Assembly: GCA_028869385.1 (NCBI GenBank)
Contig: JAGWSR010000061.1
Coordinates: forward strand, 3,526-67,525
Length of the DNA: 64,000 nucleotides
From: a bacterium
Lineage (GTDB): Bacteria > Vulcanimicrobiota > Vulcanimicrobiia > Vulcanimicrobiales > Vulcanimicrobiaceae
Direction of reading: 5' to 3'
Position 1 is the first letter of the stretch. Every line of letters begins with the position of its first letter. A model generated the notes under the pieces. It saw only the letters and a list, made by a program, of their open reading frames with translations. It made no database searches and had not been told where the DNA came from. Of this stretch, positions 12,994 to 28,324 are shown in pieces. A program made the position numbers and the translations under genes.

Positions 12994-15900
12994 ATGACCA
13001 CCGGCCTCGATTCCATCGTCATCAAGGGCGCGCGCGAGCACAACCTCAAGAACATCGATCTCACGCTGCCGCGCAATCAGTTGATCGTCGTCACCGGGCT
13101 TTCGGGCTCCGGCAAGTCTTCGCTCGCGTTCGACACGATCTACGCCGAAGGTCAGCGGCGCTACGTCGAGTCGCTCTCGTCGTACGCGCGGCAGTTTCTC
13201 GGACAGATGGAGAAGCCGGACGTCGATTACATCGAGGGGCTCTCCCCCGCGATCTCGATCGACCAGAAGTCCACCTCGCGCAATCCGCGCTCGACGGTCG
13301 GCACGGTCACCGAGGTGTACGACTATCTCCGCCTGCTCTTCGCGCGCATCGGGACGCCGCATTGCTACAACTGCGGTCGCGAGATCAGTTCGCAGTCGAG
13401 CGAGCAGATCGTGGATTCGATCATGGAGCTGCCCGAAGGCACGCGCCTCGAATTGCTCGCGCCGCTCGTGCGCGGACGCAAGGGCGAGTACACCAAGCTC
13501 TTCGAGGAGATCGCGAAGGAGGGCTTCGCGCGCGTTCGCGTTGACGGCGAGATCAAAGAGCTGCGCGAGAAGATCGTTCTCGACAAAAAGCGTAAGCACA
13601 CAATCGAGGTGGTGGTGGATCGCCTCGTGATCAAGCCCGAGGTGCGCAAGCGCCTCACCGACTCGGTGGAGACGACGCTGCGCCTCTCGACCGGCATCGT
13701 GACGGTTGCCCTTCGACAAGCTCAGGGTGACACGGGGCGCCACGGTGACACGGGGCGGCAGGGTGACACGGGACGGCAGGGTGACACGGGACGGCAGGGT
13801 GACATGGGGCGGGAGTTGACGTTTAGCGAGGCGTTTGCGTGCGTGTATTGCGGGATCTCGTTTGAAGAGCTCGCGCCGCGGCTCTTTTCATTCAATTCGC
13901 CGTACGGCGCGTGTTCGGCGTGCAGCGGGCTCGGTGAGAAGATCGAGATCGACCCGTGGAAGGTGATCCCCGATCGCAGCAAGTCGATCGACGACGGCGC
14001 GATCGTGCCGTGGAGCAAGAGCCTCGGGACCGGGCGCTTCCCCTCGATGAATCCGTACTATCTGCAGCAGCTCGAACGCGTGCTGCGCAAGTACCGCGTG
14101 AAGATGTCCACGCCGATCGAAAAGATGTCGGACGAGGTCGTGGACATCATCCTCTACGGCACCGATCGCGAACAGGACTTCGCGTTCACCTCGCGTGCCG
14201 GCAAGACGTGGGAGTACCGCGCCTCGTTCGAAGGCGTCGTGAACAACCTGCAGCGCCGGTACAGCGAGACGTCGAGCGAGTACGTCAAAGAAGATATCGA
14301 AAAGTACATGTCGGCCTCGACGTGCCCGACGTGCAAGGGCGCGCGCCTCAAGCCCGAAGCGCTCGCCGTCAAGATCGGCGGCGAGAACATCGACGCGCTC
14401 ACGCGAATGTCCATCGAGAACGCCGAGGCGTTCTTTCGCGGGATCGCGCTCACCGAGCGCCAGGAGAAGATCGCGCACCAGATCGTCAAAGAGATTCGGG
14501 CGCGTCTCGGCTTCCTCACGAACGTCGGCCTGAACTACCTAACGCTCGCGCGCTCGGCGACCACGCTCTCCGGCGGCGAGTCGCAGCGCATTCGTCTGGC
14601 CACGCAGATCGGTTCGGCGCTCGTGGGCGTGCTCTACATTCTCGACGAGCCGTCGATCGGATTGCACCAGCGCGACAACGATCGTCTGCTGGCGACACTC
14701 AAGACCTTGCGCGATCTCGGCAACACGCTCGTGGTAATCGAGCACGACGAAGATACGATGCGCATGGCCGACGTGATCGTGGATATCGGTCCGGGCGCGG
14801 GTGCCGAGGGCGGCGAGATTCTCACCGTCGGTCCGATCGAGCGCGTGATGGAGCATCCGATCTCCGAGACCGGCGCCTACCTCTCGGGTCGCAAGTTCAT
14901 TCCGATTCCCAAACGTCGACGCGAAGCGCGAGGCCATCTCGAAGTCAAGAAAGCCAACGCCAACAACCTGCACAACGTCGATGTGAAGTTTCCGATCGGC
15001 GCCTTTACCGCGGTGACGGGCGTGAGCGGAAGCGGAAAATCGTCGCTCGTGAATCAGGTGCTGGTGCGCGCGCTCAATCAGCATCTGCACGGACAGCCCG
15101 CGGGCGGCACGTACGGCACCGTGAAGGGCGCCGAGCAACTCGATAAGCTCGTGGTCATCGATCAGTCGCCGATCGGGCGCACGCCGCGTTCGAATCCCGC
15201 CACCTACACCGGCTGCTTCGACCACATCCGCGAGCTCTTCTCGCTCGTACCCGAGGCGAAGATGCGCGGCTACACGCCGGGGCGCTTCTCGTTCAACGTC
15301 AAGGGCGGACGCTGCGAGTCGTGCGAGGGCGACGGCATCATCAAGATCGAGATGCACTTTCTCCCCGACGTCTATGTGCCGTGCGAGGTGTGCAAGGGCA
15401 AGCGCTACAACGCGCAGACGCTCGAGGTGCGGTACAAGGGGAAGACGATCGCCGACGTGCTCGAGATGCGCGTGGACGAAGCGGCAGAGCTCTTTTCGAG
15501 CATCCCGCGCATCCATAACAAGCTCAAGACCATCTGCGAGGTCGGCCTCGGCTACATCAAGATGGGACAACCGGCGACCACGCTCTCGGGCGGCGAGGCG
15601 CAGCGCGTCAAGCTCGCGACCGAGCTCGCGCGGCGTTCGACGGGACGCACCTTCTACGTGCTCGACGAACCGACCACCGGCTTGCACTTCGCGGATATCC
15701 ACAAACTGCTCGACGTGCTGCAGCGTCTCGTTGACCTAGGTAATTCCGTGCTCGTGATCGAGCACAATCTCGACGTCATCAAAACCGCCGATCATCTGAT
15801 CGATCTCGGTCCCGAAGGCGGCGACCGCGGCGGAACGATCGTCGGCACCGGAACGCCCGAGCAGCTCGCGCGCAATCCGCGTTCGTACACCGGTCAGTAT

Positions 15901-16038
15901 CTGGTGCCGGTGCTGCGCGACCAGCGCGCGACCGGGCATCACATGCTTGATCCGAAAGAACTAGAACGTCTCGAGCGTGAGAATATACGTGCGCTTGACG
16001 ATCTCGCGAAGGGTGAGCGCCTCGCCGTCGAAGCGTAA
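12994..16038 (+). CDS. uvrA: Excinuclease ABC subunit A, carrying an in-frame repeat insertion
   Basis: Motifs: GLSGSGKSS and GVSGSGKSS Walker A; two LSGGE signatures; CxxC zinc modules ([34 protein letters not shown]). Confidence 0.95.
13708..13816 (+). repeat. Genome repeat core (GCCCTTCGACAAGCTCAGGGTGACAC) plus 5 tandem 18-bp units inside uvrA
   Basis: The core at 13708-13733 is identical to the intergenic copies at 26954-26979 and 27008-27033. 18-mers GGTGACACGGGNCGNCAG begin at 13727, 13745, 13763, 13781 and 13799. They encode [36 protein letters not shown]. Confidence 0.9.
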
Positions 16039-16043
16039 TCTTC

Positions 16044-18451
<2,408 letters not shown>

Positions 18452-25174: not shown

Positions 25175-25217
25175 ACTTTTGATCGCGTGATTGAAGGGCG
25201 TTGCGCGGCCTCGCGCA

Positions 25218-26768
25218 ATGCCCTTTTTCATGCGTTTACAACAGATCGTTGCAAGTGTCGCTTGCCTTGCCGTGCTTGGATCGGCGCTCGGCGCGCATCC
25301 CGCGCCGGCGAGTGCGAAGCAGACTCACAAGCCGCATCCGGCCGCGGCTCCCATGGCCGACGAACACAACTCCGTCACGCATGGGACGGTAACCGTAGGC
25401 GGTCAGAGCATCGCGTACACCGCGACCACGGGCAACCTGATTCTCAAAGACAAGAAGGGCAAACCCGCCGTCAGCGTGTTCTACGTGGCGTACACGAAGG
25501 ATGGCGCCGACCGTTCGCAGCGCCCCGTGACGTTTCTCTACAACGGCGGCCCCGGCTGCGCGTCGTCGCCGCTGCACATGTTCGCGTTCGGTCCGCGCCG
25601 CATCGAGGTCGCGAACGCAAAGCCCAACAGCGGCCCGCCGTTCAAGCTGATTAACAACGGCGACAGCCTGCTCGACAAATCCGATCTCATCTTCATCGAC
25701 GCGCCGGGAACCGGCTACAGCAAGCTGCTGCCGGGCGCCGATCCCAAAGACTTCTACGGCATCGATCAAGACGCGGCGGCGTTCGCGCAGTTCATCGAGC
25801 GCTACGTCACGCTCAACGATCGCTGGAACTCGCCGAAGTTCTTGCTCGGCGAGAGCTACGGCACGCCGCGCTCGGCCGCGCTCGTGGACTACCTGCAGAA
25901 CAACGACAACATGCAGTTCAACGGCGTGATTCTCTTGAGCTCGGTGCTCGACTTCGATACGATCGCGCCCGGACCGGGGAACGATCTCGCCTACATCACC
26001 TATCTGCCGACCGAAGCCGCGGTGCGCTGGTATCACGACACGTCGTCGAACAAAGGCTCGCTTCAAGCGACGATCGACGCCGCGCGCAGCTTCGCGAACG
26101 GACCGTACGCGTCGGCGTTGCTGCAGGGCAACCGCCTCTCGCACGACCAGTTCGTGAAGATCGCGGGCGAATTCGCGCGCATGACGGGCCTCTCGCAAAC
26201 GTACGTGGAGCAGTCGAATCTCCGCGTGCAGCCGGGGCGCTTCGAGAAAGAGTTGCTGCGCGCCGAGGGCAAGCAGACGGGACGCCTCGACGCGCGTTAC
26301 ACCGGCTACGATCTCGACCAGATCGGCGATTCCGCCGAGTACGATGCCGCGGATGCCGACGTGAGCAACGCGCTGCAGTCGCAGTTCATCTCGTACGCGC
26401 ACAATACGTTGCACTACACGAACGACGCGCATTATCCGCAGTGCGTCGGCCCGGTCAATCAAAACTGGGATTACACGCGCAAGTCGATCTTCGGCTGGCT
26501 CGCACCGACCACGAGCCCCGATCTGCAAGAAGCGATGACGACCAATCCCAACCTGCGCGTGTTCGTGGGCGGCGGCTACTTCGACATGGCGACGCCGTTC
26601 GGCGCCGCGGAGTGGACGTTCTCGCACCTCGGCCTGCAGCCGGCGCTACAGTCGCACGTGCAAATGCACTTCTACGACTCGGGACACATGGTGTATCTCA
26701 ATCCCAACGCCCTCGCCCAATTCCATGGCGACCTCGACCACTTCTACGACTCAGTACTGAGTCATTAA
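25218..26768 (+). CDS. Secreted serine carboxypeptidase (peptidase S10 family)
   Basis: Signal peptide: ..MRLQQIVASVACLAVLGSALGAHPAPASA. Motifs LYNGGPGCASS and GESYGT (nucleophile Ser), with a C-terminal ..SGHMVY His. The start could be 25191, 25218 or 25230. Confidence 0.8.
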   Translation: MPFFMRLQQIVASVACLAVLGSALGAHPAPASAKQTHKPHPAAAPMADEHNSVTHGTVTVGGQSIAYTATTGNLILKDKKGKPAVSVFYVAYTKDGADRSQRPVTFLYNGGPGCASSPLHMFAFGPRRIEVANAKPNSGPPFKLINNGDSLLDKSDLIFIDAPGTGYSKLLPGADPKDFYGIDQDAAAFAQFIERYVTLNDRWNSPKFLLGESYGTPRSAALVDYLQNNDNMQFNGVILLSSVLDFDTIAPGPGNDLAYITYLPTEAAVRWYHDTSSNKGSLQATIDAARSFANGPYASALLQGNRLSHDQFVKIAGEFARMTGLSQTYVEQSNLRVQPGRFEKELLRAEGKQTGRLDARYTGYDLDQIGDSAEYDAADADVSNALQSQFISYAHNTLHYTNDAHYPQCVGPVNQNWDYTRKSIFGWLAPTTSPDLQEAMTTNPNLRVFVGGGYFDMATPFGAAEWTFSHLGLQPALQSHVQMHFYDSGHMVYLNPNALAQFHGDLDHFYDSVLSH

Positions 26769-26775
26769 GCGATCC

Positions 26776-26891
26776 GTGTCACCCTGAGCTAGTCGAAGGG
26801 CCCCCGTGTCACCCTGAGCCCGTCGAAGGGTCCACGTGTCACCCTGAGCCCGTCGAAGGGCCCCTGTGTCACCCTGAGCTTGTCGAAGGGC
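26776..26891 (-). repeat. Tandem array (3.9 x 30 bp) of the genome repeat in reverse orientation
   Basis: Units GTGTCACCCTGAGCNNGTCGAAGGGNCCNN start at 26776, 26806, 26836 and 26866. Each is the reverse complement of GCCCTTCGACNNGCTCAGGGTGACAC. Confidence 0.9.
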
Positions 26892-26894
26892 AAC

Positions 26895-26930
26895 AAGAGG
26901 ACCGCATCACGCGGCCCTCTTTGTTTTTGT
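26895..26930 (+). terminator. Rho-independent terminator between convergent S10 peptidase and birA genes
   Basis: Hairpin AAGAGGACCGC-ATCAC-GCGGCCCTCTT (one A.C mismatch) followed by TGTTTTTGT. Confidence 0.65.
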
Positions 26931-26937
26931 GGCGCTC

Positions 26938-27033
26938 GCCCTTCGACAAGCTCGCCCTTCGACAAGCTCAGGGTGACACGGGGGGGAGCTCGCCCTTCGA
27001 CAGGCTCGCCCTTCGACAAGCTCAGGGTGACAC
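26938..27033 (+). repeat. Four forward-orientation copies/half-copies of the genome repeat
   Basis: GCCCTTCGACAAGCTC (26938). GCCCTTCGACAAGCTCAGGGTGACAC (26954). GCCCTTCGACAGGCTC (26992). GCCCTTCGACAAGCTCAGGGTGACAC (27008). Together with 26776-26891 these form a large imperfect palindrome centred on the terminator. Confidence 0.9.
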
Positions 27034-27047
27034 CGTTGCGGCGGGGG

Positions 27048-27845
27048 CTAGCGTAGCGCTCTTGCGTCGGCGAGGGCGATGGGTTCTTTGCGGCCGTCGG
27101 GGTGTTGGACGATGAGGGCGCCGGTGTTGGAGAGGGCGAGGGCGGTGACGTCGATCGGGGCGGCGTCGCCGTCTTTGAGGATGCGATAGGGCTTGGGGAG
27201 GCGGGCTTGGCGTTCCCACACGCGGGCGATGCGTTGGGGCATGTCGAGCGTCTCTTGCCACACCTCGTAGTTGAGCAGCAGGTCGTGCAGCAGCTTCGCG
27301 CGCGAGACGTTGGGGTTGGCGTCGCTGCAGAAGGCGGGTGGGGGCGCGATCTCGTCGGCGGCGGGCGTGCGGTGCACGTTGATGCCGACGCCGGCACCCA
27401 CCCAGGCGCGGTCGCCGATGACGCGGCTGATGCAGAGGATGCCGGCGATCTTCTTGCCCTCGTGGAGCAGGTCGTTCGGCCAATGGAGCTCGCTCGTGAC
27501 GCCGCTCATCATGAGGGCGCGGCGCACGCAGATCGCGACGCCGTAGGGCACCACCCACAGGTTCGCGGCTGGAATCGAGCGCGGAAGGATGGTGGTGAGG
27601 AGCAGGGAGCTGCCGGGCTGCGCGAGCCAGGCGCGCCCCGCCTTGCGCCCGACGCCGGCCGATTGGAACTCGGCGACGATGCTGGTGCCGCGGGCGCGTT
27701 CGTCGCCGAGCAGGGCGGCGGCATCTTCGTTGGTGCTCGCGGTCTGCTCGAGGTAGCGGATGTCGGCGAAGGCGGTGCCGCGCAGTTCGGCCGCGACCAA
27801 GGCGTACGGATGTTCGGCTGCTGCTGCCATAGGTAGAGCTTGCAC
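27048..27845 (-). CDS. birA: Biotin--[acetyl-CoA-carboxylase] ligase (class I, no N-terminal HTH)
   Basis: ORF translation: ..FQSAGVGRKAGRAWLAQPGSSLLLTTIL..HWPNDLL..KIAGILC. Confidence 0.8.
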   Translation of the reverse strand: MQALPMAAAAEHPYALVAAELRGTAFADIRYLEQTASTNEDAAALLGDERARGTSIVAEFQSAGVGRKAGRAWLAQPGSSLLLTTILPRSIPAANLWVVPYGVAICVRRALMMSGVTSELHWPNDLLHEGKKIAGILCISRVIGDRAWVGAGVGINVHRTPAADEIAPPPAFCSDANPNVSRAKLLHDLLLNYEVWQETLDMPQRIARVWERQARLPKPYRILKDGDAAPIDVTALALSNTGALIVQHPDGRKEPIALADARALR

Positions 27846-27868
27846 GGGCGACGTATTCGGGGCCTGCT

Positions 27869-28324
27869 ATGGCTATTGAAACCACGCTGATCCTCTGTAA
27901 ACCCGACGCCGTCTCGCGCGGCCTGGTCGGTGAAATCATCGCGCGCATCGAGCGCCGCGGCTACCTGATCACCGCGATGAAGCTCATGCAGCTTCCCGGC
28001 GACAAGGCGCGCGAACACTACGGCGAGCATAAGGACCGTCCGTTCTTCGGTGAGCTCGTGGACTTCATCACGAGCGGCCCGCTCGTTGCGCTGGCCGTTG
28101 AAGGCGACGGCGCCGTCGAAGGCATGCGTCAGATCATCGGCGCGACCAACCCGCTCACCGCGGCGCCCGGTTCGATCCGTGCCGATTACGGTCAGACGAT
28201 CGGCCGCAATCTCGTGCACGGCAGCGACAGCAAAGATAGCGCGGCGCGCGAACTCAAGATCTTCTTCGAAGCCAACGAGTTCGTTTCGCGCAAGCACGAT
28301 CTGGAACGCTGGATCAAGGGCTAG
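27869..28324 (+). CDS. ndk: Nucleoside diphosphate kinase
   Basis: ORF translation: TLILCKPDAV..GEIIARIE..RPFF..GATNP..PGSIRADYG..RNLVHGSDS. Confidence 0.95.
   Translation: MAIETTLILCKPDAVSRGLVGEIIARIERRGYLITAMKLMQLPGDKAREHYGEHKDRPFFGELVDFITSGPLVALAVEGDGAVEGMRQIIGATNPLTAAPGSIRADYGQTIGRNLVHGSDSKDSAARELKIFFEANEFVSRKHDLERWIKG

Follow-up and report, generated by a model that had tools for sequence, protein, structure and literature searches.

A very small dispersed hairpin repeat, very probably inserted into a UvrA linker and extended there in place

The window analysed here, a stretch of 64,000 nucleotides from contig JAGWSR010000061.1 (positions 3,526 to 67,525, assembly GCA_028869385.1), contains a uvrA gene which carries, in frame, a 26-nt sequence followed by a run of 18-bp repeats. 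This raises the question of what the additional segment is, how it came to lie in a DNA repair gene and whether the protein tolerates it. We consider it very probable that the segment belongs, as a single copy, to a very small dispersed hairpin repeat, that this copy inserted into a linker of UvrA, that its tail was duplicated in place and that the resulting peptide is neutral. The genome carrying the window is called G000 in the following, its two congeners G001 and G002; the G000 draft comprises 3.08 Mb in 152 contigs with 65.8% G+C. Judged by the names attached to close UvrA homologues, it belongs to the family Baltobacteraceae of the Eremiobacterota. The host gene and the parts of the insert are located as follows (window positions):

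12994 to 16038, plus strand: uvrA, 1014 residues, the insertion host, identified from the open reading frame (ORF) list and from Pfam and PDB matches.
13708 to 13733, plus strand: the 26-nt repeat core GCCCTTCGACAAGCTCAGGGTGACAC, read as ALRQAQGDT and matching three other copies in the window exactly.
13726 to 13815, plus strand: five imperfect 18-bp units (GGTGACACGGGGCGGCAG-like), the three units before the last sharing one peptide reading and the last unit reading GDMGRE.

On the uvrA ORF, Pfam placed UvrA_inter at residues 134-240 and UvrA_DNA-bind at residues 320-437, and the PDB search matched the product to the solved UvrA structures 9gxk and 2r6f (E=0). The gene is single in G000, the genome search having found no second full-length copy. 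The insert lies in frame within the intact ORF, and its predicted translation is that given by the initial annotation. The 26-bp core had been described as identical to copies at 26954 and 27008; both are indeed exact (26954-26979 and 27008-27033, plus strand), and so is a third one on the minus strand (26866-26891). Within uvrA the core has a 4-bp stem, CCCT/AGGG, which encloses an 11-nt loop, TCGACAAGCTC, and after which TGACAC follows. The G+C content at the third codon positions (GC3) is 0.44 in the core and 0.845 in the rest of uvrA.

Tandem Repeats Finder (TRF) located the array at 13723-13812 with a period of 18, 5.0 copies and 91% matches. Five perfect 18-bp units had been proposed; the number stands, whereas perfection does not. 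Unit 1 is GGTGACACGGGGCGCCAC, unit 2 is GGTGACACGGGGCGGCAG, units 3 and 4 are GGTGACACGGGACGGCAG each and unit 5 is GGTGACATGGGGCGGGAG, so identity is limited to units 3 and 4, and exact matching at offset 18 extends over 31 nt at most. Each unit comprises the 3' half of the element plus junction bases. Since the last unit ends in CGGGAG, the codons of the conserved host Arg-Glu, the unit appears to be the 3' end of the element fused to the bases of the junction.

When the protein is aligned to PDB 9gxk, query residues 6-238 correspond to residues 24-256 and query residues 272-974 to residues 261-960. Consequently, about 33 query residues replace a 4-residue linker of the solved protein. The insertion site is the linker between the UvrB-interaction domain and the four-cysteine zinc module, and the cysteines C283, C286, C307, and C310 downstream of the insert are invariant in 50 homologues. 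The earlier placement of the insert in a variable loop just before a zinc module is thereby supported, this linker having 2-11 residues in relatives. In an AlphaFold model built from 50 sequences (mean predicted local distance difference test score, pLDDT, 59) residues 243-271 form a coil with a pLDDT of 26-39 between the strands 235-241 and 274-278. UvrA with the insert is probably still functional, as had been supposed: the single gene copy, the intact ORF, the 94% identity to the congeners and the invariant cysteines all point this way.

The core had been called a genome-wide repeat, and counting the 26-mer bore this out. G000 contains 37 exact matches and 218 matches with at most 3 mismatches (the threshold for all copies of the 26-mer given here), which form 111 clusters of 1-7 copies. 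Eight of the matches are in the window, whereas 100 shuffles yielded none; the inexact ones (1-3 mismatches) are found at 17081 on the plus strand and at three positions on the minus strand. The family consensus is GCCCTTCGACAGGCTCAGGGTGACACGGGG, and the unit can be written as GCCCT-TCGACARGCTC-AGGGT-GACAC(GGGG) with a length of 26-30 nt. No spanning open frame exists for 84 of the 111 clusters. The flanks of the element show a weak consensus, GGCC on one side and GGGG on the other, and no duplications. Stem variants which preserve the pairing were found, namely TCCT/AGGA (15 copies), TGCT/AGCA (6), CGCT/AGCG (3), and TACT/AGTA (1); overall, 36 cells are changed on both sides of the stem and 26 break the pair. 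It is the compensatory variants keeping the pairing, and these alone, that argue for a real stem.

Are the repeated units of uvrA particular to this gene? The element is held by 97 tandem arrays with periods of 10-99, which take three forms: duplications of the 5' half (GCCCTTCGACAAGCTC) of 15-17 bp, duplications of the 3' half with a spacer (GCTCAGGGTGACAC...) of 18-22 bp, and repeats of the whole unit of 27-36 bp. Half-unit tandem tails are thus a family-wide habit of the element. The sequence of spacer and unit is particular to each array, suggesting that the tails were formed in place after insertion and were not imported. In the window, intergenic arrays are found at one further place:

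26774 to 26891, minus strand: four tandem copies with a period of 30, just past the stop codon of a plus-strand gene (ORF 25191-26768).
26895 to 26935, no strand assigned: a G+C-rich hairpin followed by a T run, terminator-like, between convergent genes; the flanking inverted copies lengthen its stem.
26934 to 27033, plus strand: two complete copies, both with a 16-bp duplicate of the 5' half-unit (GCTCGCCCTTCGACAA) ahead of them, adjoining the 3' end of the minus-strand ORF 27022-27948.

These arrays are inverted around the terminator-like hairpin and lie between the convergent stops at 26768 and 27022; for the plus-strand part TRF reported repeats at 26934-26969 and 26987-27023. The region 26860-26985 is predicted to fold with -53.4 kcal/mol (z = -11.8). 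A search of the intergenic array against Rfam at a permissive threshold gave chance-level matches only and no matching family, and in the collection of papers searched none contained the DNA or peptide strings of the element. Contigs C105 (1-136), C6 (1-125), and C67 (2189-2315), all outside the window, carry a composite repeat of 54 bp in which GTGTCACCCTGA is fused to a second family, CCCTTCGACTCGCTTCGCTCGCTCAG; at contig ends this composite breaks the assembly. The reverse strand of CCCTTCGACTCGCTTCGCTCGCTCAG reads VLSERSESKG, a peptide which is nested in the UvrA loop of several relatives.

The gene next to uvrA also carries the element:

16397 to 18451, plus strand: ligA, NAD-dependent DNA ligase, 684 residues, with the Pfam domains DNA_ligase_aden, OB, HHH, and BRCT.
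17081 to 17144, plus strand: the ligA insert, consisting of the element (1 mismatch) and 2.6 units of 18 bp (GDTGDS), in the same frame as the uvrA copy.

TRF placed the ligA repeats at 17099-17144. In the orthologue alignments neither congener has the insertion; at this site both possess loops of 11-12 residues that are unrelated to it. Being found in G000 only, the ligA insert is species-specific and younger than the uvrA insert, and it speaks for recent activity of the element.

Host genes were validated by an open frame of at least 60 residues on each side of the element (27 clusters), by a coding GC3 signature on both sides (12 clusters) and by Pfam. All 12 validated clusters read xLRQAQGDT, and their frames are intact. 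The hosts confirmed by Pfam include the repair and replication proteins UvrA, LigA, Mfd, and MutS2. The others are cofactor-independent phosphoglycerate mutase (iPGM; gpmI), an E2 acyltransferase, ATP synthase gamma (atpG), a GT9 glycosyltransferase, ArgG, a FadB-like enzyme, TrmFO, and a short-chain fatty acid transporter. The validated genes hold about 11% of the clusters. The initial annotation had regarded a repeat within an essential-type repair gene as unusual; with at least 12 genes hit in G000, and with the same loop hit repeatedly in relatives, it is not unusual within this lineage.

Two of the six frames of the element contain TGA and four are open, one of these reading VTLSLSKG. The leading copy within genes makes use of one open frame only; the VTLSLSKG reading occurs where an inverted second copy follows (iPGM, TrmFO, and GT9). 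For counting orientations an approximate gene call was used, which reached 64% of the genome. Of the copies within genes, 21 point in the sense direction and 3 in the antisense direction. Sense and antisense copies number 6 and 40 in convergent intergenic regions, taken relative to the nearer gene, and 31 and 49 between tandem genes; divergent intergenic regions hold 13 more copies. As the orientation within genes is opposite to the intergenic preference, it is better explained by selection on the peptide than by an insertion bias. In validated genes all 10 arrays have a period that is a multiple of 3, compared with 34 of the 87 arrays elsewhere.

The loop of ArgG was read in 120 homologues. 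Usually it is SVDGVTGAALVAKLN; many relatives have instead 1-4 units of the LRQAQGDT type, and PFDSAQDDT in two units, PSTTLRYARDDK, and further forms also replace it. G000 itself carries three LRQAQGDT units in the ArgG loop after FExGVP (contig C61, 2280-2365, outside the window), and a longer array of the LRQAQGDT type with tails is seen in P0124, the closest of the ArgG homologues found (85% identical). Some ArgG relatives possess C-terminal tails of the ALRQAQGDT type.

We then consider the corresponding loop of UvrA, aligned from 27 relatives of the same class. Among these an element-derived insert is confined to the three genomes of the genus, while genomes outside the genus have 2-11 residues after ...GIVTV, for example LLDD-RE. 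The comparison of related uvrA genes thus revealed both presence or absence of the insert and, within the three genus genomes only, differences in its units. The loop of G000 reads ALRQAQGDT followed by five GRQGDT units (18 bp each), and that of G002 has leading residues followed by three KGAERDT units (21 bp each). The G001 loop is decayed (ATRQSQGEAKAQGDAKE). Between G000 and G002 the uvrA core differs at 1 of 26 positions and the flank at 4 of 44, too few sites to judge gene conversion. Copies of the family number 218 in G000, 142 in G002 and 4 in G001, the latter having nearly lost the family.

The UvrA segment was further searched against about 5.8 billion proteins, and the loop was read in 110 Eremiobacterota homologues. 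In many relatives the loop is empty, with 6 residues such as VAADRE, LTDKRE, or LADARE. Other states are LRQAQDDKSWEE and variants of it; xPSTGSGQAxRE, which is the third frame of an element variant lacking TGA; xPSTG-PVLSERSESKG-SGQAKE, in which a second repeat is nested in the first; SPFDSAQGDK...; and a conserved motif of about 28 residues. Loops of the LRQAQ type occur in 18 of 111 homologues. In a UvrA tree computed with the loop masked the loop states switch among close relatives; the LRQAQ state requires at least 8 changes on well-supported branches, and one clade with 99% support mixes empty, PSTGSGQ, and LRQAQ loops.

The DNA of four UvrA homologues (L155-L158) presents an empty site, two insertion registers and a nested inverted copy. 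The empty site of L155 reads GTA CTC GCC GAC GCG CGC GAG. In L156 CCTTCCACAGGCTCAGGACAG stands between ...GAT and GCC..., and in L157 GTC is followed by CTTCGGCAAGCGCAGGACGACAAG..., where about 20 of 24 positions still match the repeat consensus. In L158 an inverted copy splits the first copy into two halves. Judged from these sequences, the loops of UvrA and ArgG are colonised again and again in Eremiobacterota by repeat-derived inserts in different frames, nested or decayed. Either few sites tolerate an insertion, or the element tends to land where a copy already sits, or both; the two are not separable here, though a degree of targeting is favoured by the nesting and clustering. The protein collection contained neither the exact UvrA nor the exact LigA sequence of G000, and scans of metagenomes with junction patterns returned 0 contigs.

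Which enzyme might mobilise the element? PF01797, the Y1 family comprising the transposases of IS200 and the RAYT enzymes (transposases associated with repetitive extragenic palindromic, REP, sequences), had no match in G000, G002, G007, and G018, which carry 138-218 copies each. It was present in 4 of 31 relatives, all of them with 0 copies of the element. PF04480 (DUF559) and PF00078 (reverse transcriptase) were absent from G000 and bore no relation to copy number in the 31 relatives. At three loci between inverted arrays no transposase was found; they hold ordinary genes such as those for a MazF-like toxin and a class I glutamine amidotransferase. The first of these types was seen on contig C6 (40884-41899, outside the window), where an ORF of 122 residues resembling MazF/PemK is bracketed by inverted copies of the element, with about 45 nt of shared sequence (gttttcacacgaYgtgaaaacgcgggcgtcccccga...) beside each copy; the latter may represent a repeat of its own or the terminal part of an RNA gene. 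Microhomology between host GTGAC and the tail of the element was considered as an insertion cue and discarded: it occurs beside the uvrA insert and in ligA of G007 and is not general.

From these findings the following course of events is proposed. The repeat would have entered the flexible stretch joining the UvrB-interaction domain to the zinc module in the ancestor of the genus or before. Its 3' half, together with the adjoining junction bases, would then have been duplicated in tandem in place, probably by replication slippage or unequal exchange, giving the five 18-bp units. Selection would act as a filter only: the frame is kept, the two TGA frames are avoided, and what passes are permissive surface loops, the hydrophilic LRQAQGDT and tail periods that are multiples of three. 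The roughly 29 extra residues would most likely form a disordered and functionally neutral loop, neutrality being our inference. As to movement, the nesting, the arrays and the reused loops would all agree with a process which acts on a hairpin and tends to choose sites within or beside existing copies.

Several points weigh against this account. No mobilising enzyme emerged from the searches described above, and neither a target-site duplication nor a clear target motif could be defined. The single unit, with CCCT paired to AGGG across the 11-nt loop, is predicted to fold only weakly (-1.6 kcal/mol, z = 0.27). The structural model, poor overall, weakly suggests that the insert is disordered, and the activity of UvrA with the insert is inferred rather than measured. 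For the exact count of the 18-bp units there is a single assembly of short contigs to go by. Finally, repeated hits in one loop can be explained by selection alone and do not require targeting.

A first alternative is that the insert is an adaptive module of variable length, in which slippage of the 18-bp units alters the length of the linker beside the UvrB-binding domain and thereby tunes nucleotide excision repair, similar to a contingency locus under selection. Slippage is physically possible given two identical units and an exact run of 31 nt; tail length and unit type vary among the three congeners; and 4 of the 12 hosts (uvrA, ligA, mfd, and mutS2) are genes of DNA repair or replication. 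However, the remaining hosts are ordinary metabolic enzymes such as ArgG, iPGM, and ATP synthase gamma, and many relatives manage with a loop of 6 residues. Like tail duplications are present in 97 arrays, which are mostly intergenic and have periods that are not multiples of 3, so the tails are a property of the element and not of uvrA. The units have moreover diverged to 91% matches, as in an ageing array rather than an actively cycling one. As 18-bp units preserve the frame at any copy number, no on/off switching would result, and the phase variation considered in the initial annotation cannot arise in this way. We therefore regard an adaptive module as improbable.

Still less probable is the second alternative, according to which LRQAQxD... 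is an old loop, conserved as protein throughout the family, and the intergenic copies are unrelated to it or derived from it. The motif LRQAQDDK(S/A/N)W(E/S)E is conserved as amino acids in several Aquilonibacter-like UvrA proteins, and the 18 LRQAQ-type loops mentioned above could be seen in the same light. Conservation at the amino-acid level only, named by the initial annotation as an argument against an inserted repeat, is not what was found: the G000 core is identical to the intergenic copies at 26 of 26 nucleotides, and many relatives have an empty loop. The GC3 of the core (0.44) is foreign to a gene with 0.845, empty 6-residue and filled loops share well-supported clades, and the element occupies the same site in three frames and in nested copies. 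Furthermore, the uvrA copy of G001 is decayed in a genome that is nearly devoid of the family, and the loop DNA of L157 still agrees with the repeat consensus at about 20 of 24 positions. For relatives the second alternative is partly true, since a number of older insertions have plainly turned into ordinary loops; their origin is nevertheless the repeat.

That the high-copy repeat was stitched into uvrA, or collapsed or expanded there, by the assembly is hardly credible. The draft does consist of many contigs, and related repeats break it at contig ends (C105:1-136, C6:1-125, C7:1-90, and C50:1-144). Yet the insert leaves the reading frame intact, and the genus supplies three genomes, assembled independently, in which an insert derived from the element occupies the same codon position but has a different tail in each. 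Related inserts are present in this loop in dozens of further UvrA proteins from metagenomes, and the five units, being different from one another, can be placed by reads of ordinary length.

We return to the dispersed repeat and ask how far it has spread. A 19-nt core (at most 1 mismatch) was present in 35 of 121 genomes of the phylum, 33 of these belonging to the same family as G000. Copies range from 0 to 199 per genome with wide variation within genera, G000 being the highest of the 121; the reversed pattern, used as control, gave 0-1 matches. One genus (g25) spans 0 to 166 copies. In the nearly complete genomes G078 and G007 the copies are strongly strand-biased (45:7 and 136:62).

Across phyla, one genome per prokaryotic species was scanned for the exact 19-nt core. 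At least 120 contigs contained it; as only about 35 chance matches are expected by our estimate, most of the matches should be real. The matches listed include Bacteroidota, Cyanobacteriota, Actinomycetota, Chloroflexota, Acidobacteriota, Nitrospirota, Planctomycetota, Pseudomonadota, and groups of the candidate phyla radiation, among others. The 3' tail is CGAACGG, TGACA, ACCG, CAAGC, or TGAGCGG depending on the lineage, and several flanks extend the stem. In eight cases from other phyla among the matches listed the core is in frame in a protein confirmed by Pfam: MetH of Ulvibacter, HsdR of Sphingobacteriales, RecG of Anaerolineales, DnaX of Microbacterium, RlmM of Gallionellaceae, an M17 aminopeptidase of Saccharibacteria, an FGE-sulfatase-like protein of Villigracilis, and a FAD oxidoreductase of Lentisphaerales.

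These matches, together with copy numbers from 0 to about 200 within single genera, allow a wider interpretation, which we put forward tentatively and which may well turn out to be wrong. CCCT-TCGACARGCTC-AGGG (19-21 nt) would be a cosmopolitan mobile core, among the smallest known, spreading between phyla and multiplying in bursts; a factor other than RAYT that recognises the hairpin loop would mobilise it, landing would be guided by existing copies or hairpins, and protein loops would be rewritten repeatedly.

In practical terms, the inserts lengthen UvrA, LigA, Mfd, MutS2, ArgG, and other proteins in a major uncultured soil phylum. They also give rise to false 'hypothetical' ORFs, interrupt assemblies and can lead alignments astray. 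A repeat of 26 nt is seen to recolonise the same protein loops and to give rise to in-frame peptide repeats in place, and its core is letter-identical across distant phyla. If truly mobile, it would be a tractable case for studying the movement of the smallest mobile DNAs and the part played by selfish DNA as raw material for protein loops; if the wider interpretation is true, bacterial proteins would generally have in it a source of new peptides for their loops. G000 is a good place to look, since it has the highest copy number of the 121 members of the phylum and a young, species-specific ligA insert.

How does the element relate to known repeats? The initial annotation had compared it to REP sequences and to MITEs (transposable elements of the miniature inverted-repeat type). 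RAYT transposases move REP sequences and their doublets (REPINs), as described by Bertels and Rainey (2011, PMC3116915). Like these, the present element is a short, high-copy, mostly extragenic imperfect palindrome, which forms clusters at 3' ends between convergent genes and inverted doublets folding into long hairpins (26860-26985). It is nevertheless not a classical REP: RAYT (PF01797) is absent from G000 and the other high-copy relatives searched, there is no GTAG head, the stem of the single unit has 4-5 bp, and in-frame copies in genes are frequent. The element does not look like a MITE either; the 26-nt unit has an internal stem of 4-5 bp and no terminal inverted repeats, and no parent insertion sequence (IS) was found, a full IS survey not being part of the analysis. 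A contingency locus is also a poor match, the 18-bp unit preserving the frame at any copy number.

Closer parallels come from two other groups. The small dispersed repeats SDR1-8 are said to have been described by Elhai and colleagues in 2008 from Nostoc punctiforme and other heterocystous cyanobacteria. Their units reportedly measure about 21-27 nt, some families form hairpins, and hundreds of copies are said to occur. Nested and adjoining copies, in-frame copies in genes, the lack of an identified transposase and polymorphism at orthologous sites are likewise reported for them, and they are described as cyanobacterial. The present element is similar with its 26-nt core (30-nt tandem spacing) in 218 dispersed copies, the nested copy in uvrA of L158, adjoining arrays, a ligA copy restricted to G000, empty and filled UvrA loops in one clade, in-frame copies in genes, and no transposase found. 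It differs in its Eremiobacterota host, in a core common to many phyla, and in the conspicuous half-unit tandem tails and repeatedly colonised protein loops, the comparison with SDR1-8 being one of descriptions.

The second parallel is provided by the Rickettsia palindromic elements (RPEs; Ogata et al. 2000, 2002), which, according to the summary in PMC10969869, comprise about 100-150 bp and lie in frame in unrelated housekeeping genes. There RPEs are presented as selfish elements of Rickettsia only, translated with the host protein in one consistently used frame and tolerated in surface regions. Here, too, the element is inserted in frame, with one reading, into 12 unrelated hosts validated by Pfam, translation being predicted from the frames. 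In contrast to RPEs, to which it has no sequence relationship, its unit measures 26-30 nt, its host belongs to Eremiobacterota, and the family is mostly intergenic and forms half-unit tandem arrays. The SDRs of Nostoc and the RPEs of Rickettsia are the closest known systems, and the repeat in uvrA resembles their in-frame cases. Relative to the Rickettsia and Nostoc cases, as these are reported, the repeat is much smaller and spread over many phyla.

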